Source: Eledone cirrhosa
Lineage: Eukaryota
Assembly: GCA_964016885.1 (NCBI GenBank)
Contig: OZ024748.1
Coordinates: forward strand, 39,618,001 to 39,682,000
DNA: 64,000 nt
Direction: 5' to 3'
This document shows positions 711 through 61,795 of the stretch, one piece after another. The position numbers and the translations under genes were made by a program. How positions within the stretch are numbered: position 1 is the first letter of the stretch; the number at the start of each line of letters is the position of its first letter. Below the pieces are notes generated by a model that made no database searches, was not told the DNA's origin, and saw nothing but the letters and a program-made list of their open reading frames with translations.

Positions 711-3345
711 CAACATACTGACTATGTTAAGACATCACAACATACTGACTGTGTTAAGACATCACAACATACTGACTGTGTTAAGACATCACAACATACT
801 GACTGTGTTAAGACATCACAACGTACTGACGGTGTTCAGACATCACAACATACTGACTGTGTTAAGACATCACAACATACTGACTATGTTAAGACATCAC
901 AACATACTGACTGTGTTAAGACATCACAACATACTGACTGTGTTCAGACATCACAACATACTGACTGTGTTAAGACATCACAACATACTGACTATGTTCA
1001 GACATCACAACATACTGACTGTGTTCAGACATCACAACATACTGGCTGTGTTAAGACATCACAACATACTGACTGTGTAAAGACATCACAACATACTGAC
1101 TGTGTTAAAACATCACAACATACTGACTATGTTCAGACATCACAACATACTGACTATGTTCAGACATCACAACATACTGGCTGTGTTAAAACATCACAAG
1201 ATACTAGCTGTGTTAAAACATCACAACATACTGACTGTGTTAAGACATCACAACATAGTGACTGTGTTAAGACATCACAACATACTGACTGTGTTCAGAC
1301 ATCACAACATACTGACTGTGTTAAAACATCACAACATACTGACTATGTTAAGACATCACAACATACTGACTGTGTTAAGACATCACAACATACTGACTGT
1401 GTTAAGACATCACAACATACTGACTGTGTTCAGACATCACAACATACTGACTGTGTTAAGACATCACAACATACTGACTGTGTTAAGACATCACAACATA
1501 CTGACTATGTTAAGACATCACAACATACTGACTGTGTTAAGACATCACAACATACTGACTGTGTTCAGACATCACAACATACTGACTGTGTTAAGACATC
1601 ACAACATACTGACTATGTTCAGACATCACAACATACTGACTGTGTTCAGACATCACAACATACTGGCTGTGTTAAGACATCACAACATACTGACTGTGTA
1701 AAGACATCACAACATACTGACTGTGTTAAAACATCACAACATGCTGACTATGTTCAGACATCACAACATACTGACTATGTTCAGACATCACAACATACTG
1801 GCTGTGTTAAAACATCACAAGATACTAGCTGTGTTAAAACATTACAACATACTGACTGTGTTAAGACATCACAACATACTGACTGTGTTAATACATCACA
1901 ACATACTGACTGTGTTCAGACATCACAACATACTGACTGTGTTAAAACATCACAACATACTGACTATGTTAAGACATCACAACATACTGACTGTGTTAAG
2001 ACATCACAACATACTGACTGTGTTAAGACATCACAACATACTGACTGTGTTCAGACATCACAACATACTGACTGTGTTAAGACATCACAACATACTGACT
2101 GTGTTCAGACATCACAACATACTGACTGTGTTAAGACATCACAACATACTGACTGTGTTAAGACATCACAACGTACTGACTGTGTTCAGACATCACAACA
2201 TACTGACTATGTTAAGACATCACAACATACTGACTATGTTAAGACATCACAACATACTGACTGTGTTAAGACATCACAACATACTGACTGTGTTAAAACA
2301 TCACAAGATACTAGCTGTGTTAAGACATCACAAGATACTGGCTGTGTTAAGACATCACAACATAATGGCTGTTAAGACATCACAACATACTGACTGTGTT
2401 CAGATATCACAACATACTGACTGTGTTAAAACATCACAACATACTGACTGTGTTAAGACATCACAACATACTGACTGTGTTAAGACATCAAAACATACTG
2501 ACTGTGTTAAGACATCACAACATACTGACTGTGTTCAGACATCACAACATACTGACTGTGTTAAGACATCACAACATACTGGCTGTGTTAAGACATCACA
2601 AGATACTGGCTGTGTTAAGACATCACAACGTACTGACTGTGTTAAGACATCACAAGATACTGGCTGTGTTAAGACATCACAACGTACTGACTGTGTTAAA
2701 ACATCACAAGATACTAGCTGTGTTAAGACATCACAAGATACTGGCTGTGTTAAGACATCACAAGATACTGGCTGTTAAGACATCACAAGATACTGGCTGT
2801 TAGGACATCACAAGATACTGGCTGTGTTAAGAGATCACAAGATACTGGCTGTTAACACATCACAAGATACTGGCTGTGTGAAGACATCACAACATACTGG
2901 CTGTGTTAAGACATCACAAGATACTGACTGTGTTAAGACATCACAACATACTGACTGTGTTAAGACATCACAACATACTGACTGTGTTAAGACATCACAA
3001 CATACTGACTGTGTTCAGACATCACAACATACTGGCTGTGTTAAGACATCACAAGATACTGGCTGTGTTAAGACATCACAACATACTGACTGTGTTAAGA
3101 CATCACAACATACTGACTGTTAAGACATCACAACATACTGACTGTGTTAAGACATCACAACATACTGACTGTTAAGACATCACAACATACTGACTGTTAA
3201 GACATCACAACATACTGGCTGTTAAGACATCACAAGATACTGACTGTGTTAAGACATCACAAGATACTGGCTGTGTTAAGACATCATAAGATACTGGCTG
3301 TGTTAAGACATCACAACATACTGGCTGTTAAGACATCACAAGATA
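711..3345. repeat. 27-bp minisatellite (gttaagacatcacaacatactgactgt)n, about 97 units
   Basis: Visible tandem unit. The LRHHNILTV and KTSQHTDCV ORFs are its translations. Confidence 0.98.
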
Positions 3346-15350: not shown

Positions 15351-15599
15351 ATTAAAATTGCCTTTTCTATATCCTACACTGTTACGTAAACCCCCCCTTT
15401 TCTATCGCCTCTCTCTCTTTCTTTCTGCCTCAATACATACATACAGACAGACACACACACGCTATCTATCTATGACATAATTATTCCACGATCGACAAGT
15501 AACAATACACAATAGCGCACTTATGACAGGCCAGAGATTTACGTGGGAGGTGATCTACCATAAATTTGTAAGAAAATCTGTTGTTGTCTAGCATGTTCG

Positions 15600-16861: not shown

Positions 16862-18694
16862 TTGAAAACAGTAAACGGTCAAGTATGTGCCACTTATCGT
16901 GAAGCTTGCCAAGAATTAAATCTTCTTGAAAATGATGGACATTGGGACACTTCACTCGCTGATGCATCGAATACTGCTCGACCAAAGCAAATACGCACAT
17001 TATTCTCAATAATATTGACAACGTGCTTCCCATCAAATCCAAAAGATCTTTGGGAAAAATATAAAAACTACATGAGTGAAGACATCCTACATCGTTTGCG
17101 TGCAACAAATCAAAATATGAATATTCAATTCACACAAAATGTGTATAATGAAGCATTGGTTTCCATTGAGGTCATATGTTTAGCAATCGCTAACAAAACA
17201 TTGGTACAATTGGGAATGCCTGCGCCGAATCGATCTGTAAACGACATTTTCGATCGTGATTTGCAACGAGAAACAAACTTTGATGTCGCCGAATTGGGTA
17301 CATTTGTTCAAACGAATCTTGCCAAATTGCTACCAGAACAACGCATAGTATATGACCAAATTATGCAGGCAACTATAAGTCAAAGCGGCACATTGTATTT
17401 TATAGATGCGCCAGGTGGTACAGGCAAAACTTTTCTCATTTCACTTATTTTGGCAACTATACGATCAGAAAATAATATTGCACTGGCAATCACATCATCT
17501 GGAATTGCGGCAACTCTTTTAGATGGTGGCCGAACAGCACATTCAGCCCTGAAATTGCCATTGAATATGCAAATCGCTGAGACATCAACATGCAATATTA
17601 CCAAACATTCTGGTATAGGTAAAGTACTCCAATCATGTAAAATCATTATATGGGACGAATGTACTATGGCGCACAAAAAATCATTGGAAGCGCTTAATAA
17701 TACGCTAAAAGATTTGAAAGGAAATGAACACCTCTTCGGTGGCACACTCATTTTATTGTCTGGTGATTTTCGACAAACTCTACCAGTTATACCGCGATCA
17801 ACACCCGCTGATGAGCTTAATGCATGTCTCAAATCATCAGTTTTATGGCGACACGTACAGAAATTAACTTTAAAAAACAATATGCGTGTACAACTACAAA
17901 ATGACGCATCCGCTGAACGTTTCACAAAACAATTGCTGGATATTGGGAATTGGAAAATGGTAATCGATGATTCCACAAAATGTATCACATTGCCAACAAA
18001 CTTCTGTAGAATCACGGCAACCAGAGACGAACTGATTCACAAAGTGTTCCCAAATATTGCGCAGCATTACAAAAATCATCAGTGGCTCAGTGTACGTGCT
18101 ATATTAGCAGCCAAAAACACCGATGTCAATGCCATTAATTTCAGCATTCAAAACGAAATACCAGGCGAAGAGACAACGTATAAGTCCATCGATACTGTAA
18201 TGAATCAAGACGAAATTATCAATTATCCAATTGAATTCTTGAATTCACTTGATTTGCCAGGCATGCCACCGCACATTTTAACATTGAAAATTGGCGTGCC
18301 TATCATCCTTCTCCGAAACATCAATCCACCACAACTTTGCAACGGTACCAGACTTTCAGTGAAAAAGACGATGAACAATATCATCGAGGCTACAATTTTA
18401 AATGGAAAATTTAAAGGAGAAGATGTACTCTTGCCACGCATCCCAATAATTCCAACAGATACGCCATTCGATTTCAAACGTTTGCAGTTTCCGGTGCGAC
18501 TCGCCTTTGCAATGACTATCAACAAAGCACAAGGACAATCGCTACAAGTGTGTGGACTAAATTTAGAAAATCCATGCTTCTCACATGGACAGCTGTATGT
18601 GGCTTGCTCACGCGTCGGTAAACCTTCTGATTTATTCGTGTACGCACCAGAAGGAAAAACAAAAAACATTGTGTATCCAAAAGCACTTCAGTAA
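16862..18694 (+). CDS. Helitron RepHel C-terminal PIF1-like SF1 helicase (5'-truncated, no ATG start)
   Basis: DAPGGTGKT (Walker A), IIWDEC, LSGDFRQTLP, LRNINPPQLCNGTRL, FAMTINKAQGQS and HGQLYVACSRV. Confidence 0.93.
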   Translation: MKTVNGQVCATYREACQELNLLENDGHWDTSLADASNTARPKQIRTLFSIILTTCFPSNPKDLWEKYKNYMSEDILHRLRATNQNMNIQFTQNVYNEALVSIEVICLAIANKTLVQLGMPAPNRSVNDIFDRDLQRETNFDVAELGTFVQTNLAKLLPEQRIVYDQIMQATISQSGTLYFIDAPGGTGKTFLISLILATIRSENNIALAITSSGIAATLLDGGRTAHSALKLPLNMQIAETSTCNITKHSGIGKVLQSCKIIIWDECTMAHKKSLEALNNTLKDLKGNEHLFGGTLILLSGDFRQTLPVIPRSTPADELNACLKSSVLWRHVQKLTLKNNMRVQLQNDASAERFTKQLLDIGNWKMVIDDSTKCITLPTNFCRITATRDELIHKVFPNIAQHYKNHQWLSVRAILAAKNTDVNAINFSIQNEIPGEETTYKSIDTVMNQDEIINYPIEFLNSLDLPGMPPHILTLKIGVPIILLRNINPPQLCNGTRLSVKKTMNNIIEATILNGKFKGEDVLLPRIPIIPTDTPFDFKRLQFPVRLAFAMTINKAQGQSLQVCGLNLENPCFSHGQLYVACSRVGKPSDLFVYAPEGKTKNIVYPKALQ

Positions 18695-22638: not shown

Positions 22639-24136
22639 TTCCGACTTTATCGAACCATTTAAAATACATATTGTAGAGAACATAAAGATCAATAACCGTA
22701 ACGACAGATTAATTGCTCTCGAGAAAGCTGACTACAACATCTTTAAATTACAACCTGAAGATGTCATGATCTATTTCCTTACAGATGCTGGCACTAATGC
22801 TTTCAGTCTTGAACAAAACGCAAGAATATGGATGGGTGATGAAAGTTATGCCGGATCTACTAGTTATGAAACTTTGAAAGACACGGCAACATATATTTCT
22901 GGTTTTGAAAACATTCTGCCAGTTTTTTCTGAATGTATCAGCGAAGAGATTGTCGCTTCTTATTTCACAAAAGCTGGAGATAAGGTTATTGGGAATACTT
23001 TTACTTATTCACTTGAGAAGCATATAAAGGATCTTCATGCTGAAGCGATTTCTTTGTTAGATTGGTCAGATAATAATTTTGCAGGAAATCTAGATGTTCA
23101 AGCACTCAAAAACTTATTGGCAGAAAATGATAAAAAATCAATTTCCTTTCTTATAATGAATGTACCAGCAAAAAGTAGTGGTGGCCAACCAGTTAGTATG
23201 TCAAACATGAAAGCAGTTTCTGATCTCTGTCGCGAACATTCGATTCCGATATACATCGAAAGTAGTATGTATGGTGAGAACTGTTGGCTCAATAAAATGT
23301 ACGAAGAGGCTTACTTCAATAAATCGTTAGTTGAGATATCGCAAGAAATGTTTTCTTTTTTCGATGGCTGCATTATTTCTGCTAAAAGAGATGGTAGAAG
23401 TGAGATTGGAAGTGTCATTTGTCTTCAAGACAAAGAAATTACTCGAAAATTGGGCACTGTTATTACTCTTAAAGCAGGTTTCATAACTTATGGTGGGATG
23501 GCTGGCCGAGATATGGAAATGGTAGCGGTTGGCATGCGAGGTGCTTTGGATGAACAACTGCAAGACTATCGACAAAAACAATTGGCATTTTTCAAAAGAT
23601 CCCTGAAGGAATTTGGTGTTCCGATTGTGGAGCCAGTCGGTTGTAATACCATCTTCATTGATGCCGAAAATGCTTTTCCTAACTGTAAACACGCGTTTTA
23701 TCCAGCCTGGTCTTTATCTTGTGCTGTTTATATCGTCGGGGGTATCCGATGCGCAGAGTTTGGTCAAGTTACTCGTCCAACAAGTAGCTTACCCACTAAT
23801 CATTTTCTGAAAGACCGAGAATTACTAAAGCTTGAGATACCTCGTTTCATCTATACGACTTCTCACATTTTCTATGTTGCCTATGTTTTCGCTCAGCTTA
23901 TTTCACATGAAATGCTTTCTGGAATGAAACTTATTGCCTGCTCCGAAGACCAAATAAAAATCGTGAAAATAAAAATGAAACCAAATCATTCTCTGGAATA
24001 TGACGATATCCAACTCCTTCCGGTACAAGACTGTAAACACATTCACTTCTTTAAATACATATCTAATCAAAGAGTTATGAAAAGAAATTCAATCGCCGAG
24101 GCATCTTCTATATGGTCAGTCGACATTCATTCTTAA
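22639..24136 (+). CDS. Tryptophanase/TPL-family paralog A; predicted non-catalytic (PLP Lys to Arg) partner subunit; single large exon
   Basis: Family motifs EPFKIH, ADYNIFKL, FLTDAGT, GDESYAGS, GGQPVSMSN, GFITYGGMAGRDME, GGIR..EFG and IPR..YT. The frame is open for about 498 codons. Acceptor ttttcgtttcctttcAG at 22637-38; the ORF-track TTG start lies in the intron/RTE remnant. Confidence 0.9.
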
Positions 24137-24321
24137 AAAGGGGACAAACACGTTAGATAATGTAATCGTAGACACAAAAAAGACGTGGTAGTCATGATTG
24201 GAACGTCCCTGATCATATAATTGCTCTGTCAATGTTGACCTGAACTTAAACAACAGCAACAACAACACAGAGATTTTTTTTTGTTGCACCCAAACAGGGT
24301 TCTGTAAATTCTAGATTGTAC

Positions 24322-24475
24322 ATTCTTTTATTCTTTTACTGGTGTCAGTCATTAGACTGTGGCCATGCTGGGGCACTGTTCTTTTACTGGTTTCAGTTAT
24401 TAGACTGTGGCCATGCTGGGGCAGTGGTCTTTTACTGGATTCAGTGATTCTACTGTGGCCATGCTAGGGCACCAT
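24322..24475. repeat. About 47-bp tandem x3 derived from a SINE-like end
   Basis: cttttactgg..tcagt.att..actgtggccatgct.gggca is repeated three times. Confidence 0.8.
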
Positions 24476-24669
24476 TTGCTTGTTAGTTTATTTTTTTAAA
24501 TTGGTTTTATTACCAACAATTAAACTATTGAACATGATTTTGAATAGAAAGTAGGGGAAAACATTGACAGTCTTGTCAAATATAGTTTTAATATTATGTT
24601 AACAAACCATGAAATAAAATATCTTTGGAAACTTAAATATATTTCTTGTGATGTTCTTTTTACAATTAT

Positions 24670-24790
24670 TTCACCAATATATAATTCATATGAAACATTG
24701 TGATGTATGTTTCACCAATATATAATTAATATCAAACATTGTGATGTATGTTTCACCAATATATAATTAATATGAAATATTGTGGTGTGG
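24670..24790. repeat. About 41-bp tandem repeat x3
   Basis: tttcaccaatatataatt.atat.aaacattgtgatgtatg is repeated. Confidence 0.85.
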
Positions 24791-25699
24791 TTGTAATAAT
24801 TCGGGGAAAGATGGTACAACGAATATTAGATAAACTAAGGTGAAAAGATACAACAAATCAGCATTTTAAACTTTCGTCTTATATTTCTTGATATTTTGAG
24901 GTGAAAAACTTTTTTCAAAAGAAAGAAATGGAGTCTGGTGTTGTCAACGCCCAAAGAAATGTTGATAAACGATTTATTTACATCAACTTATTATTGATGG
25001 TGACATGCTTTTGTTTCACTTTAAAAAAATATTATAATAAGGTGACATACTAATATAAATATTATTTTAAAAATAAAAAACAAATCTTGAAACATCTTAT
25101 GACTGTGGCAGTGACAAGGTTTATAGAGTTAAGAAGCCTCACAACCATCTGATTTCCGGTTCCTTTAGACTACATGGCATCTTAAAGAAGTGTCTTTCTG
25201 CCATAGGTTCGAGTCAACAAAACGGACAGTTTGCCCTTTTCGGCTTGGCGGGCAGCAGGGCCTGGACTGGTGGTGGAATGCACCAGGTTGGCACTTGCAA
25301 TTAATTGTAATATAACTGATAGATGTTGTTTCAATTCTGTGCCATTAATTGTAGATCAACGACAACATTGTTGCAGTAGTTATTTCAATTCTGTGCCATT
25401 AATAATCTGTGTTACGAACACTACATAAATAGTCTACAGGTGTTACCTTGATTTCACCAGATGGAAATATCAAAATCAAAATTGATTATGTAATTGTTCC
25501 AAACAATATTCTCGAAATGCTGAAAAACTGCCATGTGTATATTTCTACAGATATTGGTGTAGAATATTTCAACTTAGAGACTGGAAAACACAAACGTTAT
25601 TATCATAAATGTACTGTGATTGTGTGAGGCTTAATTATTAAAGATTGTAAAATCCATTCCCAGTGAATTGGTCAAACTATATCCAAGAATTTTCTTTTT

Positions 25700-26465
25700 C
25701 TTCCTTCACTTATTCCTGAGAAGGTCGTGGGGGAAGAGTCTTCAAACACTCCTTCTAGCAGGTCCTGTCAGAAGCAATCATCTCCAACTGATTTGGCTGG
25801 ATCCCCAAGCGAGACCTGCCAATCTTATGGATGTTATCCAACTATCTTGCTCAGGGTCTACTCCTGGGTCTCCTGCTGGTTGGTTTTGCCAATAAAATCT
25901 GTCCAGTATTTCCTTGGACATTCTAGCCATATAATATGTAATATCAGAGCTATGATTTCTCAATTCGGAGAAGTATCAGTTCTAACAGGAGTGATTCACA
26001 AGTCTCCAAGCTACACACACTATCGAGTAATGATACTCCAAATACCCTTTTGGAGGAACCCCATTTTGGCCACTTGTATTTGCGATTGTATTCTTTCAGT
26101 CATTACACAAGATTCATGACCATAGGTAAGGGTTGGCACGAAAACCGAATTGAAGATAGTGAGTTTGGTGTTTACACCTACCTCCCTTCTTCTGATTACC
26201 AAATGCCAAAGCTGTCACATTACTGCAGCAGCTCCTGCAATTATTGCACTTAATTCGGCCTCCTGCCTTCCATCACTCGTGACCATGGCCCTGAGATACT
26301 TGAACTTCTCTACCAACTTCAGTAGAACTCCCTTCGCATGTAGAATGCACTGCGCAGGCTTCCTTTAGAAGACAAGTGTCTCAGTTTTCACAGCACTGAA
26401 TTTCATTCCAGCCATGCAGCACTCTGCATCAAACCTATCAAGTGCAAGTCAGAGATCACCTTTTG
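25700..26465 (-). mobile_element. RTE-clade LINE 3' fragment
   Basis: TKLTIFNSVFVPTLTYGHESCVMTERIQSQIQVAKMGFL is a typical RTE ORF2 C-terminal region. Confidence 0.8.
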
Positions 26466-26584
26466 TTGAGTTTGTAACACCATGTTGTCTGCAAATTCCA
26501 GCCACAAATTGCTGGCCATGTGCCTAAAGTAGAAAACCTTATTCCTGCAAAAGGTCCTGTTAATCCTTAATTATTATTAAATAT

Positions 26585-26740
26585 AACATATATACAAACT
26601 GGAGCTGTGTCAGGGACCAGTCCGCAAACATATATACAAACTGGAGCTGTGTCAGGGACCGGCCTGCAAACATATATACAAACTGGAGCTGTGTCAGGGA
26701 CCAGTCCGCAAACATATATACAAACTGGAGCTGTGTCAGT
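26585..26740. repeat. 42-bp tandem repeat, about 3.7 units
   Basis: aacatatatacaaactggagctgtgtcagggaccagtccgca. Confidence 0.92.
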
Positions 26741-27084
26741 GACAATGTCTGCAAACAATGAGTTGAACATTTTAACACCAAGAAATATATGATAAGTAAA
26801 AACTACAGTTAACAGATTTTTGTGTTTTGAATTACTAAAGTGACTCGTGTACAATGTAATTGGTATATATATATATACTCACTCTATATGTATGTGTTTT
26901 TATATAAATATGTAAATAGTTGTGTATATATATATATATATATATAGTTGTTATATAGTAAGGTGTATTATTGGTTGTGTCATACGGTCCAATAAACTTT
27001 TGTTAGCAATATTAAGTTCTCCACGCTTTTGTATATCCCAATTCCATTTAAGGGAACAGCTAGATGATGTAAAATGGAGTATTT

Positions 27085-28325
27085 GTATCAAAATAAAGAT
27101 CCGAAAGCATGGTATAAATTTCCAATCATTTTAATCACAACACGTTTCAATAAGGGATAGATTACGCGCATTCACCATTACTTTAGAATACCCTAACCAT
27201 AGAGTTCTCTCAGTTAGGAAATAGACGTATTACACACTCAGTTAAGAACGTTACGCTCTTTATACATAATTCTACACAGTACCCGGTTTCTTTAGACACA
27301 GAGTTGCCACAGTTATGACCAGTCATGATCTTGTCGATTGAATACTACACTAGGTTTTGGTCTGTGATCCTCTAACCAAGGAGTGCTCACAGTTTGCTGA
27401 ATGGACAATACCACTTACACGCCATCAATGGAATTACACACATCCCCGGTGTTTTGTTATTTTATTTTGTGTTGGGTAACACACCTCCACCACTCAGACA
27501 CTTATCTTAAAGGCCCGTGGGCCCATTTGACGGGAAAACGCACACACTGACAGCTTAACTCAAATACCCAACCCTATATGGAGCCCCTTGTTGGCCTACA
27601 TGGCAGGTGCTTGCACGCACAGACTCGGGGACCCAGATTCTCAACGGGACAACGGCACATATAGAGTTCGATACGAGCTGACTACTTGCTCTACACATGG
27701 ATGTGTATATACCAAAGCATACACTATTTAGACGATACAGATGTTACAATTCAATCGATACACGTATAGCAGAACGTTGAAGGGAATTTACTTGCGTGTG
27801 TATAGTGTTGTGGTTGACCCAATTTTTTTCTAATTTACATCGTGAAAATTGAGATTTGACCAATATAACGTTTGTTGTTTTGTAACCTAACTTTTGGTGC
27901 ATACTGTGTTGCTGTGTATATTTTTTTTTCTCTGACCTCGCGTCGGTGTGTGTGAGTGTGTGTCCACTCAATAACACTAATTGTGACGGACCAAAATTCT
28001 ACAGATCTGGTGCTGAGATTAGACCTGTCCAGCGTCTTTTACAGCTATTGAGAGATAGAGACTTGATAGATTTATGACCCTGACTGAAGACAATAGCAGT
28101 TGTCGTGTTTTGGCTGCTGATTATTCATATGGGGAACAAAACTCCAGTGAGTGAACATCGTTAGTTTTTCCTCCCTCATATCAAAGATTTGAAGACATTT
28201 CATTATTCACCTGATGAGATCAGTGATAATCGATCATGACCACACGATCGATCCCTTATTGAAACATGTGTCGTGATTAAAATGATTGGAAATGTATACC
28301 ATGCCTTCGGATCTTTATTTTGATA
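27085..28325 (+). mobile_element. Non-coding Penelope-derived element with about 75-bp inverted ends and a hammerhead
   Basis: 27085-27160 is the reverse complement of 28250-28325 (atcaaaataaagatccgaa..ccaatcattttaatcac..gtttcaataagggat). Confidence 0.7.
28200..28285 (+). ncRNA. Type I hammerhead ribozyme
   Basis: tcac-CTGATGA (28211-17), long stem II, GAAA (28261-64), c-atgt-g-TC, then gtga. Stem I is tcac/gtga, extended by tcatt/aatga; the cleavage triplet is GUC at 28270-72. Confidence 0.75.
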
Positions 28326-28362
28326 TATATATATAAAACTGAATTTACATTTTTTTTTCCAG

Positions 28363-29754
28363 TCTCCAAGCAATGGAACCTTACAGGATTAAGGTATTTT
28401 ATCCAGTCAATTTAATCCCCAAGTCTGACCGTATTGCATGTCTAAAAGCTGCCAACTACAACCCCTTTCTACTTAAATCGAAAGACATATTTATAGATTT
28501 GCTAACAGATTCTGGTACAGGAAGTCAAAGCAGTGCCCAGTGGTCGGCTATGACTAAAGCCGGCTATTCAACTATTAATTCCGAATACGTTAAGGAATTT
28601 GTACGTACAATTCAACACATTACCAATTTCAAACATGTATTTCCAGTTCATCAAGGTCGAGGAGCCGAAGGTTTGTTGGCAAAACTCCTACTGAATAAAG
28701 AGAGTGTTGTACTGAGTAATTCTCTGTTTGACACAACACGAGCACACGTTGAGTCATCTGGTGCAATTGGAATAGATTTGGCAACAAAGTCTTCAAAATT
28801 CTTAGGTGATGCCGATGTGGAAAAATTTGAAGAAACACTGGATGAATATGGTTCTAGAGTTCATCTTGTAATAATAACCTGCACCAATAATGTGGTAGCC
28901 GGAGCTCCTGTGAGCATGCAAAATATAGAAATCATAACAAAATTATGTCGAAACAAGAATATCCCAGTTATAATGGACGCATGCCGTTTTGTTGAAAATG
29001 CTTATTTTATCAAGACCTTAGACGAAAAATATTCTAAACACACAATCTTAGATATTGCCAGCGAAATGTTTTCTTATTTTGATGGTGCAACTATGTCTTT
29101 AAAGAAAGATGGTATGAGCAATGAAGGTGGGTTTATAGCTTTCAACAACGACAAATGGGCCACCAAAATATTTGACATAATCGAATATAAAAGTGGTTAT
29201 TCAACTTACGGGGGAATAACTGGATCAAATCTTGTAGCATGTACTGTCGGAATTTCTGAGGCTATGAACGAAAATTACCTCCGATCAAGAATCTATCAGG
29301 CTAAATTACTGGCTGATTTCTTGGAAGATAATAATATTCCCGTATTTAAACCAGTAGGGGCCCATGCCGTCTACGTGAAAGCAAACAAAGTCTTGCCACA
29401 CCTTGATTTCTTGAAGTATCCAGCATGGTCCCTTAATTGTGCCGTATATATATCGAAGGTGGTATTCGATATGGAGAAATTGGCAATATAATGTTTGGTG
29501 AAAATTCAGATGGAACTAAACAAATTCATCCCTTTGAATATGTGCGTTTGGGTTTACCCAGAAGAACCTATACGGTCAACCATCCGCATTTTGTGGCCAA
29601 AACTTTTGGTTTTGTTGCCAAAAAAGCCCATTTAATCCACGGAATGGAAATTGTCAAATCTTCGCATCTCCTAAGACATTTCACAATTTGGATGAGACCA
29701 TTAAATGAATACCACCTTGAAAAGAATAATAATCAGAAAAAAATAAACTGTTGA
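28363..29754 (+). CDS. Tryptophanase-like paralog B; carries the PLP-binding residues; 2-bp frameshift at about 29445-29453 (mutation or sequence error)
   Basis: MEPYRIK, DLLTDSGT, HQGRGAE, FDTTRAH, TNN..GAPVSM, MDACRF, SLKKDG (Lys 29105-07), then in the shifted frame IEGGIR.GEIG, VRLGLPRRTY and LRHFT. Acceptor ttttttttccAG at 28361-62; ATG at 28373 in gcaATGg context. Confidence 0.9.
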
Positions 29755-32160: not shown

Positions 32161-32924
32161 ATATATATGGATAATAGGATGAATTTGGTACAACCAATAA
32201 ATTATAAAGGCAACAAATATTTTCTTGTTTTAATATTGCAGTTTATACATATCTTAAGAAGCAGTATAAGAAAAGCTTACATTTCATTTTCAAACTTAAG
32301 TAAAAAATAAAATATATATTTATTTTCAATTTTTAAAATGCGAGCAAAAACATAAAATCGATTTCAATATTCATCACACACACATATATATACATGTATA
32401 TTATTTGGAAAAAAAAAGGGGGTGGGGTAAAGTTTTATACAAAAAAATGATGACCAGTTCGAATATTTGAGAGAAAACTCAAGTATATTCGAACTGCTCA
32501 GATATTAAAAAAAATTTTTTTATTAATATTCAATATTTAACATCTAATATTTGATAAAATTGTTTTACCAATCGAAACCAGTTATATTTAATGCAACAAT
32601 TATAAAATTATTCATTCTGTCAGATTAAAGAAAAAATAATCTTTTAATATTCCCTGAACTTTGGCAATTTCAACCCCCTACCAACAGTACTGCTGGTTCA
32701 CTCTGGGTCACAGCGTCTGAGACAAGTCAGAGCGTAGTGTCCAAATAATTATTTTAAATTATTCTATGAAAAATAAAAATTAATTACACGTATCTAAATA
32801 TCACAATTTGTTTTGTTGGATGATCTACCAACTTTGCCATCAACCAGTCATTTCTATCAAATAATTTCCAATAATATTTGTGAATATGAAAAGGTAAAGA
32901 AAGATCGATATATGTGTGTGTATA

Positions 32925-35900
32925 TATAACGTCTGAAGAGCTCAGGCTGTCATACCTGATAGTCCTCAGTGAAATATGTATAACGTCTGAAGAGCTCAGG
33001 CTGTCATAACTGATAGTCCTCGGTGAAATATGTATAACGTCTGAAGAGCTCAGGCTGTCATAACTGATAGTCCTCAGTGAAATATGTATAACGTCTGAAG
33101 AGCTCAGGCTGTCATAACTGATAGTCCTCAGTGAAATATGTATAACGTCTGAAGAGCTCAGGCTGTCATAACTGATAGTCCTCAGTGAAATATGTATAAC
33201 GTCTGAAGAGCTCAGGCTGTCATAACTGATAGTCCTCAGTGAAATATGTATAACGTCTGAAGAGCTCAGGCTGTCATAACTGATAGTCCTCAGTGAAATG
33301 TGTATAACGTCTGAAGAGCTCAGGCTGTCATAACTGATAGTCCTCAGTGAAATATGTATAACGTCTGAAGAGCTCAGGCTGTCATAACTGATAGTCCTCA
33401 GTGAAATGTGTATAACGTCTGAAGAGCTCAGGCTGTCATAACTGATAGTCCTCAGTGAAATATGTATAACGTCTGAAGAGCTCAGGCTGTCATAACTGAT
33501 AGTCCTCAGTGAAATATGTATAACGTCTGAAGAGCTCAGGCTGTCATAACTGATAGTCCTCAGTGAAATATGTATAACGTCTGAAGAGCTCAGGCTGTCA
33601 TAACTGATAGTCCTCAGTGAAATGTGTATAACGTCTGAAGAGCTCAGGCTGTCATAACTGATAGTCCTCAGTGAAATGTGTATAACGTCTGAAGAGCTCA
33701 GGCTGTCATAACTGATAGTCCTCAGTGAAATATGTATAACGTCTGAAGAGCTCAGGCTGTCAAAACTGATAGTCCTCAGTGAAATGTGTATAACGTTTGA
33801 AGAGCTCAGGCTGTCATAACTGATAGTCCTCGGTGAAATGTGTATAACGTCTGAAGAGCTCAGTCTGTCATAACTGATGGTCCTCAGTGAAATGTGTATA
33901 ACGTCTGAAGAGCTCAGGCTGTCATAACTGATAGTCCTCAGTGAAATGTGTATAACGTCTGAAGAGCTCAGGCTATCATAACTGATAGTCCTCAGTGAAA
34001 TATGTATAACGTCTGAAGAGCTCAGGCTGTCATAACTGATAGTCCTCAGTGAAATGTGTATAACGTCTGAAGAGCTCAGGCTGTCATAACTGATAGTCCT
34101 CAGTGAAATATGTATAACGTCTGAAGAGCTCAGGCTGTCATAACTGATAGTCCTCAGTGAAATGTGTATAACGTCTGAAGAGCTCAGGCTGTCATAACTG
34201 ATAGTCCTCAGTGAAATGTGTATAACGTCTGAAGAGCTCAGGCTGTCATAACTGATAGTCCTCAGTGAAATATGTATAACGTCTGAAGAGCTCAGGCTGT
34301 CATAACTGATAGTCCTCAGTGAAATGTGTATAACGTTTGAAGAGCTCAGGCTGTCATAACTGATAGTCCTCGGTGAAATGTGTATAACGTCTGAAGAGCT
34401 CAGTCTGTCATAACTGATAGTCCTCAGTGAAATGTGTATAACGTCTGAAGAGCTCAGGCTGTCATAACTGATAGTCCTCAGTGAAATGTGTATAACGTCT
34501 GAAGAGCTCAGGCTGTTATAACTGATAGTCCTCAGTGAAATATGTATAACGTCTGAAGAGCTCAGGCTGTCATAACTGATAGTCCTCAGTGAAATGTGTA
34601 TAACGTCTGAAGAGCTCAGGCTGTCATAACTGATAGTCCTCAGTGAAATATGTATAACGTCTGAAGAGCTCAGGCTGTCATAACTGATAGTCCTCAGTGA
34701 AATGTGTATAACGTCTGAAGAGCTCAGGCTGTCATAACTGATAGTCCTCAGTGAAATATGTATAACGTCTGAAGAGCTCAGGCTGTCATAACTGATAGTC
34801 CTCAGTGAAATATGTATAACGTCTGAAGAGCTCAGGCTGTCATAACTGATAGTCCTCAGTGAAATATGTATAACGTCTGAAGAGCTCAGGCTGTCATAAC
34901 TGATAGTCCTCAGTGAAATGTGTATAACGTCTGAAGAGCTCAGGCTGTCATAACTGATAGTCCTCAGTGAAATGTGTATAACGTCTGAAGAGCTCAGGCT
35001 GTCATAACTGATAGTCCTCAGTGAAATGTGTATAACGTCTGAAGAGCTCAGGCTGTCATAACTGATAGTCCTCAGTGAAATGTGTATAACGTCTGGAGAG
35101 CTCAGGCTGTCTGTCATAACTGATAGTCCTCGGTGAAATGTGTATAACGTCTGAAGAGCTCAGTCTGTCATAACTGATAGTCCTCAGTGAAATGTGTATA
35201 ACGTCTGAAGAGCTCAGGCTGTCATAACTGATAGTCCTCGGTGAAATATGTATAACGTCTGAAGAGCTCAGGCTGTCATAACTGATAGTCCTCAGTGAAA
35301 TATGTATAGCGTCTGAAGAGCTCAGGCTGTCATAACTGATAGTCCTCAGTGAAATATGTATAACGTCTGAAGAGCTCAGGCTGTCATAACTGATAGTCCT
35401 CAGTGAAATGTGTATAACGTCTGAAGAGCTCAGGCTGTCATAACTGATAGTCCTCAGTGAAATATGTATAACGTCTGAAGAGCTCAGGCTGTCATAACTG
35501 ATAGTCCTCAGTGAAATATGTATAACGTCTGAAGAGCTCAGGCTGTCATAACTGATAGTCCTCAGTGAAATATGTATAACGTCTGAAGAGCTCAGGCTGT
35601 CATAACTGATAGTCCTCAGTGAAATGTGTATAACGTCTGAAGAGCTCAGGCTGTCATAACTGATAGTCCTCAGTGAAATGTGTATAACGTCTGAAGAGCT
35701 CAGGCTGTCATAACTGATAGTCCTCAGTGAAATGTGTATAACGTCTGAAGAGCTCAGGCTGTCATAACTGATAGTCCTCAGTGAAATGTGTATAACGTCT
35801 GGAGAGCTCAGGCTGTCTGTCATAACTGATAGTCCTCGGTGAAATGTGTATAACGTCTGAAGAGCTCAGTCTGTCATAACTGATAGTCCTCAGTGAAATG

Positions 35901-37477
35901 TGTATAACGTCTGAAGAGCTCAGGCTGTCATAACTGATAGTCCTCGGTGAAATATGTATAACGTCTGAAGAGCTCAGGCTGTCATAACTGATAGTCCTCA
36001 GTGAAATATGTATAGCGTCTGAAGAGCTCAGGCTGTCATAACTGATAGTCCTCAGTGAAATATGTATAACGTCTGAAGAGCTCAGGCTGTCATAACTGAT
36101 AGTCCTCAGTGAAATGTGTATAACGTCTGAAGAGCTCAGGCTGTCATAACTGATAATCCTCAGTGAATTGTGTATAACGTCTGAAGAGCTCAGGCTGTCA
36201 TAACTGATAGTCCTCAGTGAAATGTGTATAACGTCTGAAGAGCTCAGGCTGTCATAACTGATAGTCCTCAGTGAAATATGTATAACGTCTGAAGAGCTCA
36301 GGCTGTCATAACTGATAGTCCTCAGTGAAATGTGTATAACGTTTGAAGAGCTCAGGCTGTCATAACTGATAGTCCTCGGTGAAATGTGTATAACGTCTGA
36401 AGAGCTCAGTCTGTCATAACTGATAGTCCTCAGTGAAATGTGTATAACGTCTGAAGAGCTCAGGCTGTCATAACTGATAGTCCTCAGTGAAATGTGTATA
36501 ACGTCTGAAGAGCTCAGGCTGTCATAACTGATAGTCCTCAGTGAAATATGTATAACGTCTGAAGAGCTCAGGCTGTCATAACTGATAGTCCTCAGTGAAA
36601 TGTGTATAACGTCTGAAGAGCTCAGGCTGTCATAACTGATAGTCCTCAGTGAAATATGTATAACGTCTGAAGAGCTCAGGCTGTCATAACTGATAGTCCT
36701 CAGTGAAATGTGTATAACGTCTGAAGAGCTCAGGCTGTCATAACTGATAGTCCTCAGTGAAATATGTATAACGTCTGAAGAGCTCAGGCTGTCATAACTG
36801 ATAGTCCTCAGTGAAATATGTATAACGTCTGAAGAGCTCAGGCTGTCATAACTGATAGTCCTCAGTGAAATATGTATAACGTCTGAAGAGCTCAGGCTGT
36901 CATAACTGATAGTCCTCAGTGAAATGTGTATAACGTCTGAAGAGCTCAGGCTGTCATAACTGATAGTCCTCAGTGAAATGTGTATAACGTCTGAAGAGCT
37001 CAGGCTGTCATAACTGATAGTCCTCAGTGAAATATGTATTACGTCTGAAGAGCTCAGGCTGTCATAACTGATAGTCCTCAGTGAAATGTGTATAACGTCT
37101 GGAGAGCTCAGGCTGTCTGTCATAACTGATAGTCCTCGGTGAAATGTGTATAACGTCTGAAGAGCTCAGTCTGTCATAACTGATAGTCCTCAGTGAAATG
37201 TGTATAACGTCTGAAGAGCTCAGGCTGTCATAACTGATAGTCCTCGGTGAAATATGTATAACGTCTGAAGAGCTCAGGCTTTCATAACTGATAGTCCTCA
37301 GTGAAATATGTATAGCGTCTGAAGAGCTCAGGCTGTCATAACTGATAGTCCTCAGTGAAATATGTATAACGTCTGAAGAGCTCAGGCTGTCATAACTGAT
37401 AGTCCTCAGTGAAATGTGTATAACGTCTGAAGAGCTCAGGCTGTCATAACTGATAGTCCTCAGAGAAATGTGTATAG
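32925..37477 (+). repeat. 54-bp satellite, about 84 units, each a hammerhead-ribozyme-like motif
   Basis: Unit: acgt-CTGAAGA-gctcaggctgtca-taac-tgatagtcctcagt-GAAA-tatgta-TA. Confidence 0.97.
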
Positions 37478-37697
37478 CAGAGTTTTAAATAAATCTGAAT
37501 CGACTGATAATGGCCTCCAACCTTTTAATAGTGTGTGTGTGTGCGTATACATATGAGATTGTTTAGCCTTATATACCTTTCCACAATATATATATAAGTA
37601 GAAGTGGTATTTAATTTGTTGGAAGTCCGACAAACATAGATGTTTATAACTGATTTAGAGCACTCAACAAGTTACTGGAGTAAATATTCAATGATAT

Positions 37698-38293
37698 TAA
37701 ATAAATGGAAACTATATTTATAAAACTATATTTATAAACTATAGTTTTATAAATATAGTTTTTTAAATATAGTTTTATAAATATAGTTTATAAATATAGA
37801 TTTATAAATTATATTTATAAAACTATATTTATAAAACTATATTTATAAAACTATATTTATAAAACTATATTTATAAAACTATTTTATAAAACTATTTTAT
37901 AAAACTATATTTATAAAACTATATTTATAAAACTATATTTATAAAACTATATTTATAAAACTATATTTATAAAACTATTTTATAAAACTATTTTATAAAA
38001 CTATTTTATAAAATTATATTTATAAAACTATATTTATAAAACTATATTTATAAAACTATATTTATAAAACTATTTTATAAAACTATTTTATAAAACTATT
38101 TTATAAAACTATTTTATAAAACTATTTTATAAAATTATATTTATAAAACCATATTTATAAAACCATATTTATAAAACTATATTTATAAAATTATATTTAT
38201 AAAACCATATTTATAAAACTGTATTTATAAAACTATATTTATAAAACTATAGTTTATAAATATAGTTTTATAAATATAGTTTCCATTTATTTA
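37698..38293. mobile_element. AT-rich foldback-like element with internally repetitive (13-bp) inverted termini
   Basis: taaataaatggaaactatatttataaaactatatttataaactatag at the left end, with its exact reverse complement at the right end; the interior is (tatatttataaaac)n. Confidence 0.75.
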
Positions 38294-39121
38294 GTAATAA
38301 CAGTGCCCAATTTTCGAGTAATTTCTTTGTCTTGAAGACAAATGACACTTCCAATCTCACTTCTACCATCTCTTTTAGCAGAAATAATGCAGCCATCGAA
38401 AAAAGAAAACATTTCTTGCGATATCTCAACTAACGATTTATTGAAGTAAGCCTCTTCGTACATTTTATTGAGCCAACAGTTCTCACCATACATACTACTT
38501 TCGATGTATATCGGAATCGAATGTTCGCGACAGAGATCAGAAACTGCTTTCATGTTTGACATACTAACTGGTTGGCCACCACTACTTTTTGCTGGTACAT
38601 TCATTATAAGAAAGGAAATTGATTTTTTATCATTTTCTGCCAATAAGTTTTTGAGTGCTTGAACATCTAGATTTCCTGCAAAATTATTATCTGACCAATC
38701 TAACAAAGAAATCGCTTCAGCATGAAGATCCTTTATATGCTTCTCAAGTGAATAAGTAAAAGTATTCCCAATAACCTTATCTCCAGCTTTTGTGAAATAA
38801 GAAGCGACAATCTCTTCGCTGATACATTCAGAAAAAACTGGCAGAATGTTTTCAAAACCAGAAATATATGTTGCCGTGTCTTTCAAAGTTTCATAACTAG
38901 TAGATCCGGCATAACTTTCATCACCCATCCATATTCTTGCGTTTTGTTCAAGACTGAAAGCATTAGTGCCAGCATCTGTAAGGAAATCGATCATGACATC
39001 TTCAGGTTGTAATTTAAAGATGTTGTAGTCAGCTTTCTCGAGAGCAATTAATCTGTCGTTACGGTTATTGATCTTTATGTTCTCTACAATATGTATTTTA
39101 AATGGTTCGATAAAGTCGGAA
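38293..39121 (-). pseudogene. Inverted, 3'-truncated duplicate of tryptophanase-like paralog A
   Basis: Near-identical to 22639-23467 and keeps the acceptor (cctctcAG at 39123-22). It stops after GTVIT at the foldback element. Confidence 0.93.
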
Positions 39122-40912: not shown

Positions 40913-41010
40913 ATTTCGAAAAAAATATTGAAAGGAAGATTTTCTTACAGATCGGAGAAGTCCATGGCTGTTTCTTGTTGGTTTGGCAGATGTTTCGTAA
41001 AATTGATGTT

Positions 41011-44799: not shown

Positions 44800-47700
44800 C
44801 AAAAGACATTGTATGTCATTAACCCTTTCATTACCATACTTCTAATGAAAGACAAAGTCTATGTCATTAACCCTTTCATTACCATATTTCTAATGAATGA
44901 CACTGTCTATGTTATTAACCCTTTCATTACCATATTTCTAATGAAAGACACAGTCTATGTCATTAACCCTTTCATTACCATATTTCTAATGAAAGACACT
45001 GTCTATGCAATTAACCCTTTCATTAACATATTTCTAATGAAAGACAGTCTATGTCATTAACCCTTTCATTACCATATTTCTAATGAAAGACACTGTCTAT
45101 ATCATTAACCCTTTCATTACCATATTTCTAATGAAAGACACTGTCTATGCAATTAACCCTTTCATTAACATATTTCTCACAAAAGCCACTGTTTATGTCA
45201 TTGACCATTTCATTACCATATTTCTAATGAAAGACATTGTCTATGTCAATAACACATTCATTACCATATTTCTAATGAAAGACACTGCCTATGTCATTAA
45301 CACATTCATTACCATATTTCTAATGTAAGACACTGTCTGTCATTAACCCTGTCATTACTATATTTCTAATGAAAGACACTGCCGATGTCATTAACCCTTT
45401 CATTACCGTATTTCTAATGAAAGACAATGTCTATGTCATTAACCCTTTCATTACTATATTTCTAATGAAAGATACTGCCTATGTCATTAACCCTTTCATT
45501 ACCATATTTCTAATGAAAGACACTGTCTATGACATTAACCCTTTATTATCATATTTCTAATGAAAGACACTGTCTATGTCATTAACCCTTTATTATCATA
45601 TTTCTAATGAAAGACACTGTCTATGTCATTAACCCTTTCATTAACATATTTCTCACAAAAATACTGCCTATGTCCATATTACCATATTTCTAATGAAAGA
45701 CACTGTCTATGTCATTAACTCTTTCATTACCATATTTCTAATGAAAGACACTGTCTATTTCATTAACCCTTTCATTACCATATTTCTAATGAAAGACACT
45801 GCCAATGTCATTAACCCTTTCCTTACCATATTTCTAATGTAAGACACTGTCTGTCATTAACCCTGTCATTACTATATTTCTAATGAAAGACACTGCCTAT
45901 GTCATTAACCCTTTCATTACCGTATTTCTAATGAAAGACACTGTCTATGTCATTAACCCTTTCATTACTATATTTCTAATGAAAGATACTGCCTATGTCA
46001 TTAACCCTTTCATTACCATATTTCTAATGAAAGACACTGTCTATGACATTAACCCTTTATTATCATATTTCTAATGAAAGACACTGTCTATGTCATTAAC
46101 CCTTTATTATCATATTTCTAATGAAAGACACTGTCTATGTCATTAACCCTTTCATTAACATATTTCTCACAAAAATACTGCCTATGTCCATATTACCATA
46201 TTTCTAATGAAAGACACTGTCTATGTCATTAACTCTTTCATTACCATATTTCTAATGAAAGACACTGTCTATTTCATTAACCCTTTCATTACCATATTTC
46301 TAATGAAAGACACTGCCAATGTCATTAACCCTTTCCTTACCATATTTCTAATGTAAGACACTGTCTGTCATTAACCCTGTCATTACTATATTTCTAATGA
46401 AAGACACTGCCTATGTCATTAACCCTTTCATTACCGTATTTCTAATGAAAGACACTGTCTATGTCATTAACCCTTTCATTACTATATTTCTAATGAAAGA
46501 TACTGCCTATGTCATTAACCCTTTCATTACCATATTTCTAATGAAAGACACTGTCTATGACATTAACCCTTTATTATCATATTTCTAATGAAAGACACTG
46601 TCGATGTCATTAACCCTTTCATTAACATATTTCTCACAAAAGATACTGCCTATGTCCATATTACCATATTTCTAATGAAAGACACTCTCTATGTCATTAA
46701 CTCTTTCATTACCATATTTCTAATGAAAGACACTGTCTATTTCATTAACCCTTTCATTACCATATTTCTAATGAAAGACACTGCCAATGTCATTAACACT
46801 TTCATTACCATATTTCTGACACTGTTTATGTCATTAACCCTTTCATTACCATATTTCTAATGAAAGACACTGTCTATGTCATTAACCCTTTCATTACCAT
46901 ATTTCTAATGAAAGACACTGTCTATTTCATTAACCCTTTCATTACCATATTTCTAATGAAAGTCATTGTCTATTTCATTAACCCTTTCATTACCATATTT
47001 CTAATGAAAGACACTGTCTATTTCATGAACCCTTTCATTACCATATTTCTAATGAAAGACACTGTCTATTTCATTAACCCTTTCATTACCATATTTCTAA
47101 TGAAAGACACTGTCTATTTTATTAACCCTTTCATTACCATATTTCTAATGAAAGTCACTGTCTATTTCATTAACCCTTTCAATACCATATTTCTAATGAA
47201 AGACACTGTCTATGTCATTAACCCTTTCATTACCATATTTCTAATGAAAGTCACTGTCTATGTCATTAACCCTTTCATTACCATATTTCTAATGAAAGAC
47301 ACTGTCTATTTCATTAACCCTTTCATTACCATATTTCTAATGAAAGACACTGTCTATTTCATTAACCCTTTCATTACCATATTTCTAATGAAAGACACTG
47401 TCTATTTCTTTAACCCTTTCATTACCATATTTCTAATGAAAGACACTCTCTATGTCATTAACCCTTTCATTACCATATTTCTAATGAAAGTCACTGTCTA
47501 TGTCATTAACCCTTTCATTACCATATTTCTAATGAAATTCACAGCCTATGTCATTAACCCTTTCATTACCATATTTCTAATGAAAGACACTGTCTATGTC
47601 ATTAACCCTTTCATTACCATATTTCTAATGAAAGTCACTGTCTATGTCATTAACCTTTTCATTACCATATTTCTAATGAAAGACACTGTCTATGTCATCA

Positions 47701-49857
47701 ACCCTTTCATTACCATATTTCTAATGAAAGTCACTGTCTATTTCATTAACCCTTTCATTACCATATTTCTAATGAAAGACTCTGTCTATGTCATTAACCC
47801 TTTCATTACCATATTTCTAATGAAAGTCACTGTCTATGTCATTAACCCTTTCATTACCATATTTCTAATGAAAGTCACTGTCTATGTGATTAACCCTGTC
47901 ATTACCATATTTCTAATGAAAGTCACTGTCTATGTGATTAACCCTGTCATTAACATATTTCTAATGAAAGTCATTGTCTATGTCATCAACCCTTTCATTA
48001 CCATATTTCTAATGAAAGTCACTGTCTATTTCATTAACCCTTTCATTACCATATTTCTAATGAAAGTCACTGTCTATTTCATTAACCCTTTCATTACCAT
48101 ATTTCTAATGAAAGACACTGTCTATGACATTAACCCTTTATTATCATATTTCTAATGAAAGACACTGTCGATGTCATTAACCCTTTCATTAACATATTTC
48201 TCACAAAAGATACTGCCTATGTCCATATTACCATATTTCTAATGAAAGACACTCTCTATGTCATTAACTCTTTCATTACCATATTTCTAATGAAAGACAC
48301 TGTCTATTTCATTAACCCTTTCATTACCATATTTCTAATGAAAGACACTGCCAATGTCATTAACACTTTCATTACCATATTTCTGACACTGTTTATGTCA
48401 TTAACCCTTTCATTACCATATTTCTAATGAAAGACACTGTCTATGTCATTAACCCTTTCATTACCATATTTCTAATGAAAGACACTGTCTATTTCATTAA
48501 CCCTTTCATTACCATATTTCTAATGAAAGTCATTGTCTATTTCATTAACCCTTTCATTACCATATTTCTAATGAAAGACACTGTCTATTTCATGAACCCT
48601 TTCATTACCATATTTCTAATGAAAGACACTGTCTATTTCATTAACCCTTTCATTACCATATTTCTAATGAAAGACACTGTCTATTTTATTAACCCTTTCA
48701 TTACCATATTTCTAATGAAAGTCACTGTCTATTTCATTAACCCTTTCATTACCATATTTCTAATGAAAGACACTGTCTATGTCATTAACCCTTTCATTAC
48801 CATATTTCTAATGAAAGTCACTGTCTATGTCATTAACCCTTTCATTACCATATTTCTAATGAAAGACACTGTCTATTTCATTAACCCTTTCATTACCATA
48901 TTTCTAATGAAAGACACTGTCTATTTCATTAACCCTTTCATTACCATATTTCTAATGAAAGACACTGTCTATTTCTTTAACCCTTTCATTACCATATTTC
49001 TAATGAAAGACACTCTCTATGTCATTAACCCTTTCATTACCATATTTCTAATGAAAGTCACTGTCTATGTCATTAACCCTTTCATTACCATATTTCTAAT
49101 GAAATTCACAGCCTATGTCATTAACCCTTTCATTACCATATTTCTAATGAAAGACACTGTCTATGTCATTAACCCTTTCATTACCATATTTCTAATGAAA
49201 GTCACTGTCTATGTCATTAACCTTTTCATTACCATATTTCTAATGAAAGACACTGTCTATGTCATCAACCCTTTCATTACCATATTTCTAATGAAAGTCA
49301 CTGTCTATTTCATTAACCCTTTCATTACCATATTTCTAATGAAAGACTCTGTCTATGTCATTAACCCTTTCATTACCATATTTCTAATGAAAGTCACTGT
49401 CTATGTCATTAACCCTTTCATTACCATATTTCTAATGAAAGTCACTGTCTATGTGATTAACCCTGTCATTACCATATTTCTAATGAAAGTCACTGTCTAT
49501 GTGATTAACCCTGTCATTAACATATTTCTAATGAAAGTCATTGTCTATGTCATTAACCCTTTCATTACCATATTTCTAATGAAAGTCACTGTCTATTTCA
49601 TTAACCCTTTCATTACCATATTTCTAATGAAAGACACTGTCTATGTCATTAAACCTTTCACTACCATATTTCTAATGAAAGTCACTGTCTATGTCATTAA
49701 CCCTTTCATTACCATATTTCTAATGAAAGTCACTGTCTATGTCATTAACCCTTTCATTACCATATTTCTAATGAAAGACACTGTCTATGTCATTAACCCT
49801 TTCATTACCATATTTCTAATGAAAGTCACTGTCTATGTCATTAACCCTTTCATTACT
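44800..49857. repeat. 48-bp satellite (about 105 units) with 514-bp and 1567-bp higher-order repeats
   Basis: Unit: atgaaagacactgtctatgtcattaaccctttcattaccatatttcta. Variant patterns recur at 45369/45883/46397 and 46588/48155. Confidence 0.97.
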
Positions 49858-49877
49858 AAATATACCAATAATAATAA

Positions 49878-49993: not shown

Positions 49994-50056
<63 letters not shown>

Positions 50057-59031: not shown

Positions 59032-61795
<2,764 letters not shown>

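Follow-up and report, generated by a model that had tools for sequence, protein, structure and literature searches.

Background and locus

Tryptophan indole-lyase (TIL, or tryptophanase; EC 4.1.99.1; P. vulgaris 1AX4, E. coli 2C44) and tyrosine phenol-lyase (TPL; EC 4.1.99.2; C. freundii 2EZ1) belong to the same family, PF01212, and in both the active site is shared by two chains. Within the catalytic dimer, it is the partner chain that contributes the catalytic Tyr, along with another Tyr that binds phosphate (excerpts of PMC11301627 and PMC2770544). Each chain of the bacterial homotetramers carries both halves of the site, and there are four sites per tetramer. Here we analyze a 64,000-nucleotide stretch of the genome of the cephalopod Eledone cirrhosa (assembly GCA_964016885.1, contig OZ024748.1, positions 39,618,001 to 39,682,000; below, the window). 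Two large exons in it, A and B, encode proteins of this family, but neither chain has both halves of the site. The original prediction took A and B for two adjacent paralogous genes with complementary active-site loss, whose products form an obligate heteromer. Our own reading, to which we give a probability of about 0.85, is that the locus encodes a cephalopod TIL, a heteromer of A (contributing Tyr71 and Glu69) and B (contributing pyridoxal 5'-phosphate, PLP), with both subunits made by alternative splicing of one gene.

The closest proteins are octopod. B matches one protein of Octopus bimaculoides at 82% identity; A matches a different one from that species at 75% and an Argonauta model at 70%. 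Cephalopods reportedly have two TILs, alpha and beta, which arose by a duplication before the octopus-squid split; in Yuasa's account each is said to carry disruptive substitutions and to be inactive alone, and the pair is said to form a low-activity heterotetramer in which the working unit is a heterodimer. That feature, two paralogues with disruptive active-site substitutions, is also found here, with best matches to Octopus and Argonauta at 70-82%; what the E. cirrhosa genome shows besides is a 10-unit array with damaged copies. A cephalopod heteromer appears to have been published already, as a 2023 paper by Yuasa HJ on tryptophan indole-lyases of cephalopods (J Mol Evol 91:912-921, PMID 38007709, doi 10.1007/s00239-023-10144-x) is cited in PMC12980246. 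The claim that the family holds no described case is not supported, going by the title of that paper and its reported content. A second Yuasa paper, on metazoan TILs, is cited in excerpts of PMC13342648, and excerpts of PMC8537960 list octopus tnaA and do not discuss active sites. A search of the open literature found no paper that states the heteromer or a one-gene layout (for splicing, among the best 15 of 143 matches), with subscription journals mostly outside its coverage.

Two further systems bear on the design. Hybrid dimers of the E. coli mutants H463F and Y74F, which are reported to rescue activity (Phillips 2002, cited in PMC12980246), are a laboratory version of the A/B arrangement. 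In serine palmitoyltransferase, only SPT2 of the SPT1/SPT2 pair has the PLP Lys and both subunits are needed (excerpts of PMC6148460). The likeness is that a PLP enzyme with homodimeric bacterial relatives became a heterodimer (SPT1/SPT2, or LCB1/LCB2), presumably with one site; the difference is that it belongs to the AOS family. SPT1 and SPT2 are also encoded by two unlinked genes rather than by alternative exons.

Complementary loss of active-site residues

Both exon products are PF01212 beta-eliminating lyases, with profile scores of 125.8 (A) and 166.5 bits (B) against a cut-off of 27, and their nearest solved structures are TPL and tryptophanase. They also pass the NF009709 profile (399 and 489 bits; cut-off 285). 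The equivalog cut-offs of TIGR02617, TIGR02618 and NF053783 are reached neither by A and B nor by the chiton enzyme, which is intact. In the intact copy of the locus, A and B are 30% identical to each other. Residues are numbered as in C. freundii TPL, from HMMER alignments of A and B to that enzyme, and were counted in an alignment of 221 intact homologues with 7 A-type and 9 B-type proteins.

The motifs and coordinates originally given for A and B were found again in the sequence, including Tyr71 of A and the Arg that replaces its PLP Lys (Table 1). Tyr71 and Lys257 are each present in all 221 intact homologues. A-type proteins keep D68, E69, Y71, G73 and Y291 (7/7 each; in the window, E69 lies at 22841 and Y291 at 23489); E69, Y71 and Y291 are residues that a subunit lends to its neighbor. 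None of the seven retains K257, which is Arg in every orthologue, and the changes N185K, D214E, R217M, F123T, H343N and R404K are equally constant (7/7); S51A is found in all five A-type proteins that span the position. The pattern in B-type proteins is reciprocal: K257, D214 and R217 are kept in 9/9 and Q98, G99, R100, F123, D124, N185, R404 and H448 in 8/8, and D68, E69, Y71 and G73 in 0/8. The B exon of the window follows suit, with T49, S51, Q98, R100, F123, D124, N185, D214, R217, K257 (29105-07), N262, R404, H448 and F449 retained, Tyr71 changed to Thr (28571) and Glu69 changed to Tyr (28565). The combination of K257 and Y71 on one chain that marks a canonical homotetrameric TIL is found in neither A nor B.

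This reciprocal loss is fixed in all proteins of both types (7 A, 9 B) and holds to identities as low as 44% for A and 53% for B; an additional full-length A (P0367, 44% identity) has the identical pattern. Because Tyr71 and Lys257 are universal in the intact set and their loss is fixed in opposite directions in the two types, the pattern is, as judged from the alignment, not chance decay. The complementarity first noted in the window is thereby borne out across species; open frames and substitutions alike persist to these distances. The complementarity is confined to active-site residues and does not extend over the whole protein: of 137 near-invariant columns, 38 are lost in A only, 15 in B only and 12 in both.

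Two ways in which a single chain might be rescued were rejected. A-to-I RNA editing does not help, as the replacement codons in the genome are AGA for A's PLP Lys and ACT (Thr) for B's Tyr71, and A-to-G changes turn neither AGA into Lys nor ACT into Tyr. The Tyr two residues upstream in B (AGYST) had been named as a route by which B alone might be fully active; of 8 B proteins, one has Tyr there and the others have His, Phe or Val. Retention of the Lys in A orthologues, which would likewise have spoken against the heteromer, was not seen in any of the seven. As a separate observation, the E. cirrhosa A has a C-terminal extension of ~20-25 amino acids relative to Octopus A (window 24085-24136).

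The specificity residues of B point to tryptophan. In TIL an Asp/His pair has a role in Trp specificity (excerpts of PMC11301627), and in TPL the corresponding roles are those of R381, T124 and F448 (excerpts of PMC10170061). B-type proteins have D124 in 8/8, H448 in 8/8 and R381 in 0/9; the window B has D, I and H at 124, 381 and 448. On these residues B carries a tryptophanase-type signature and lacks that of TPL (Thr124, Arg381, Phe448). In the wider set, 18 of ~150 aligned proteins are single-domain enzymes with the PLP Lys present and Phe or another residue at Tyr71 (e.g. P0389, P0404, P0417, P0429, P0434, P0461, P0474); these may be a subfamily of non-Trp beta-lyases or halves of other split pairs.

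A probable single gene with two alternative last exons

The original prediction treated A and B as adjacent genes. Each frame, however, is directly preceded by a phase-2 acceptor of the polypyrimidine-AG type. An intact first exon of 17 coding nucleotides, ending in a phase-2 GT donor, is present in the window in an inverted copy (Table 1). Joined in frame to A, this exon yields MDFSDL-SDFIEPF, and joined to B, MDFSDL-LQAMEPY; P0122 and P0001 start likewise. The predicted starts are those of two O. bimaculoides isoforms, X1 for A (XP_014791032.1) and X2 for B (XP_014791033.1). In O. sinensis, too, isoforms X1 and X2 both start MDFSDL; the RefSeq isoform names already imply a one-gene layout. 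The exon-1 pattern has nine matches in the genome. All six forward matches lie 6-7 kb upstream of an A, and none of them falls between an A and a B; no exon-1-like sequence was found in the A-B intron of the window.

Three of the four public sequencing runs that cover the region were examined (X1, X3 and X4), none of which is recorded as RNA. In run X4 the exons are covered and the non-repeat bins of the introns have near-zero depth. Its contigs start exactly at the acceptors, at 22639 for A and 28363 for B, and each is preceded by 29 unaligned letters; contigs of X1 and X3 continue into the introns. T is the first base of both exons and the second base differs, so that 29 letters plus T make a 30-letter overlap, as expected for one upstream sequence that forks in a graph of k=31, which we take to be the value used for the Logan contigs. 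X4 alleles were compared over 40 of ~204 difference rows, and those listed match one copy (L046) at 16/16 positions in A and 13/13 in B, and the window copy at 0/16 and 0/13, by construction. X4 depths serve neither to rank A against B nor as copy number.

A phase-2 donor with two matching acceptors, the MDFSDL start in isoforms of two species and the fork in X4 are the features expected of alternative last exons, and from them we strongly infer that A and B are spliced from one first exon of a single gene. The picture of two adjacent paralogous genes gives way to this one. The shared first exon may be limited to octopods, because A and B start differently in distant homologues.

Table 1. Features of the locus, in window coordinates
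Feature	Position	Strand	Remarks
Exon-1 remnant	15541..15579	+	GTAAG donor 15568-15572 intact; ~60 nt including ATG gone
Exon A, near-whole subunit of ~500 amino acids, PLP site lost	22639..24136	+	Phase-2 acceptor; start of X4 contig
Tyr71 codon of A (TAT), general acid lent to partner	22847..22849	+	Role from excerpts of PMC11301627
Arg (AGA) at A's PLP Schiff-base Lys position	23387..23389	+	Arg in 7/7 A-type proteins
A-B intron, repeat-bearing	24137..28362	+	Near-zero X4 depth in non-repeat bins
Exon B, near-whole subunit with PLP and substrate site (D124, I381, H448)	28363..29754	+	Phase-2 acceptor; in-frame ATG at 28373
Two extra bases in TA run, frameshift in B	29445..29446	+	375 codons versus 462
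Copy of exon A with 278 codons, inverted and truncated at its 3' end	38293..39121	-	Owns the first exon at 40965-40947
First exon of inverted copy (ATG, MDFSD codons, two Leu bases, GT donor)	40965-40947	-	Intact; lies in the interval 40947..40967; phase-2 partner of both acceptors

The window copy and the array

The unit in the window itself is most likely a non-functional duplicate, because its exon 1 is deleted and its B is frameshifted; the findings above rest on intact copies. The window sequence at 14258-15565 matches the region upstream of exon 1 in the intact copy L045 at 96.5%, and 62 nt ending at the donor are replaced by 2 nt relative to L045, with the deletion at 15565. The 24-nt exon-1 pattern has no plus-strand match in the window. 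The frameshift in B is shared by the window and one neighboring copy (2 of 9 B copies), and is absent from the other seven and from the covering contig of each of the three runs; a family trait or a programmed shift was rejected on these grounds. The window A also has a private change, D46Y, at 22772. Taken together, the window copy lacks the set of an exon 1 with ATG, an open A and an open B, and it is most likely not the working copy that it had been taken for.

The copies form an array on contig C8 at 39.12-40.13 Mb, in a genome of 3.0 Gb. Its full A exons number 10 and its B exons 9; two further A exons are inverted and truncated. There are nine exon-1 matches (6 forward, 3 reverse), and the copies are 98-100% identical. 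Five of the 10 units have exon 1, an open A and an open B. Contigs of X1 and X3 carry alleles of the array type; those of X4 carry the alleles of an outlying copy at 39.12-39.14 Mb, ~0.5 Mb upstream of the window. Variants among intact copies are 9 non-synonymous and 6 synonymous in A and 9 and 4 in B, which is too few to show selection. With about ten-fold amplification, half of the units damaged and the outlying copy the only one found in the RNA-like run, the array looks more like neutral duplication than a gain in dosage. In Argonauta hians, a gene model that joins a partial B to A adjoins a second partial B (P0121 and P0005, with adjacent locus tags), which suggests that the unit is tandemly repeated there too.

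The window holds other elements besides. A PIF1-like helicase open reading frame (610 amino acids, PF05970) at 16862-18694 on the plus strand lies in what would be intron 1, is unmatched in the intact copies L043 and L045 and is probably a Helitron fragment. A degenerate, telomere-like CCCTAA array lies inside the contig at 61700-62800, with 51 exact hexamers in 61600-62900. Long minisatellite arrays, along with fragments of protease, reverse transcriptase and integrase like those of long terminal repeat retrotransposons (translations, judged by eye), occupy 32784-37500, 700-3100, 46800-50000 and 53400-56900.

Phylogeny

Two trees were computed, both as quick searches. The first included 30 bacterial TILs and 15 of 117 bacterial fusion proteins (described below), with P0005 and P0121's partial B half left out; the second had 12 TILs from bacteria, six of the fusions and three single TPLs. 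The A clade and the B clade each have support of 100 in both trees and lie within a metazoan group (90-91), beside intact chiton, bivalve and coral enzymes. The topology would fit a duplication of an animal TIL within molluscs.

A parallel case in bacteria

A search with A returned an 867-aa bacterial protein that consists of two halves. The N half of this protein was then used as query, and the best 120 of 1247 matches, plus P0138, were taken as 121 candidates. Full-length tandem fusions of at least 800 aa make up 117 of these, in a family of ~880 aa (labeled P0125, P0138, P0248-P0366, P0368-P0374 and P0387; e.g. Plebeiibacterium marinum P0318). The fusions show the same division of labor as the cephalopod pair: the N half has Y71 in 117/117 and K257 in 0/117, and the C half has K257 in 117/117 and Y71 in 0/117. 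The lost columns overlap as well, between A and the N half (p 6.6e-6) and between B and the C half (p 1.2e-4). All 117 carry the TPL signature (T124, R381, F448), and they group with TPLs. The bacterial enzyme is thus a single chain with a tyrosine-lyase signature, whereas the cephalopod enzyme would consist of two chains, with a B of tryptophanase type.

The fusion is a single open reading frame in an isolate genome (L063:4001-6649). Within one order, 22 of 301 genomes contain a match to the N half, and of 23 such matches 19 sit in open frames of at least 880 aa. An AlphaFold model of P0318 has a predicted local distance difference test (pLDDT) score of 93.3 and a predicted template modeling (pTM) score of 0.91; a structure comparison found no solved tandem relative. 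A literature search on fused TPLs turned up no paper. A single clade of B and the fusion C half was rejected in the approximately unbiased (AU) test (p 1e-9), and one of A and the fusion N half was not (AU p 0.11, with long branches). The cephalopod and bacterial splits therefore likely arose independently, as the trees indicate for one half only.

Two observations concern these bacteria in their own right. P0372, P0373, P0377 and P0403 are tandem fusions whose N half carries the PLP Lys alongside Tyr71, and in two of them the C half has the two residues as well (profile alignment); it is possible that such intermediates are snapshots on the way to a split. A genome with the fused TPL also encodes a separate single-domain tryptophanase with intact motifs (L064:1372-2766).

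Proposed mechanism

In an intact unit, the 17-nt coding first exon would be spliced to exon A or to exon B to give two subunits. B would bind PLP and the Trp substrate. A, which would not bind PLP, would reach across the dimer interface and provide Tyr71, which donates a proton to the indole ring, together with Glu69 and the loop at 288-296. A catalytic dimer of A and B would have one working site instead of two, and a probable A2B2 tetramer would have two. The enzyme would split L-Trp into indole, pyruvate and ammonium at a low rate. Support for this scheme comes from the conserved reciprocal loss and from published structures in which the catalytic Tyr comes from the partner chain; association of A and B, stoichiometry, activity and substrate are predicted. 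In the obligate heteromer originally proposed, it is this mechanism that is supported, on the same two grounds; its accompanying claims of novelty, of two genes and of a working copy in the window are not.

Weighing the alternatives

Several points weigh against the heteromer from one gene, or narrow what can be claimed for it. Because three Octopus species in the A-type and B-type sets are near-identical, the counts overstate the number of independent lineages. Six of the 7 A-type proteins keep R100 and H448, which E. cirrhosa A alone has lost, and the lent Y291 is still present in 5 of 9 B-type proteins (Phe in the other 4). Over the 137 near-invariant columns, exclusivity of loss is not significant (Fisher p 0.38). 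The sister relationship of A and B has support of 85 in the second tree and is unresolved with chiton in the first. B starts MDFNEM or MNFDEL in distant homologues and A starts otherwise (P0367 versus P0003 and P0241). Finally, the 29-letter overhangs are identified with exon 1 by way of the k=31 overlap, and X4 is RNA-like by its contig pattern, in a single sample.

The most serious alternative, which we nevertheless consider unlikely, is that B alone works as a beta-lyase on substrates with good leaving groups (cysteine, S-alkyl-cysteines, O-acyl-serine), for which no Tyr acid is needed. A would then be a scaffold or regulator that enables Trp cleavage where the two are co-expressed, which is compatible with the heteromeric reading. 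Tyr71 mutants reportedly behave like the TIL mutant D133A on such substrates. That mutant is inactive on Trp and active on good-leaving-group substrates (excerpts of PMC11301627), and B does keep a full PLP and carboxylate site. B has, however, also lost E69, and A has kept, in 7/7, precisely Y71, E69 and Y291, which a mere scaffold would not need. E69 is the cation ligand lent by the partner subunit. Activity of the E. coli Y74F mutant is moreover negligible (excerpts of PMC2770544). B alone may still retain some activity on good-leaving-group substrates.

The remaining alternatives concern the gene rather than the site. It is improbable that A and B are two genes with separate promoters and that the isoform annotation is artefactual. 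An in-frame ATG of B's own, 10 nt into the exon, would allow it, and O. vulgaris and Argonauta models give A and B separately or mis-joined; against this stand the identical N-termini of the RefSeq isoforms in two species, the single exon-1 match per unit, upstream of A only, and the X4 contigs of A and B, which break at the acceptors with equal overhangs and carry alleles from one copy. Fusion of A and B in one chain, as a pseudo-dimer, is in use in the bacterial tandem enzymes and is hinted at by an 847-aa Argonauta gene model of a partial B joined to A. That model is in the opposite order, though, with B truncated; A has its own stop in every copy read, the A contig of X4 extends beyond this stop to 24348, and no A-to-B joint occurs among the 15 joints listed for the three runs (532 further joints exist), all of which makes a fused chain highly implausible. 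Equally far-fetched is a pair in which one or both members are decaying pseudogenes and the complementarity is coincidence. Decay does describe the window unit and 5 of the 10 array units, and the variants among intact copies are too few to speak for selection; but the same substitutions in open frames persist across the distances given above, and both exons are present in the RNA-like run X4.

Implications

The heteromer made by alternative splicing, as we read the locus, is a clean natural case in which the subunits of a homo-oligomer lost opposite parts of a shared active site and so became an obligate heteromer, and as such a test case for how complexity grows after duplication. With the cephalopod heteromer apparently published, what remains of interest is the layout with alternative last exons, the array and the bacterial parallel. 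A wider formulation, which we put forward tentatively and at slightly less than even odds, is that an obligate heteromer arises here from one transcription unit: a giant terminal exon was duplicated, and its two copies, served by a single promoter and first exon, diverged to 30% identity; the acceptor or polyadenylation site chosen determines the A:B ratio and hence the tryptophan-cleaving activity; and the same split arose independently in the fused bacterial TPLs. Should Yuasa's 2023 paper assign the subunits to two genes, neither the one-gene layout nor the comparison for convergence would have been reported.

If promoter and first exon are common to the two subunits, co-expression would be built in and splicing could tune activity. 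With the bacterial split in fused TPLs, two events that are probably independent can be compared residue by residue; if they are independent, the family has reached one design by two genetic routes.

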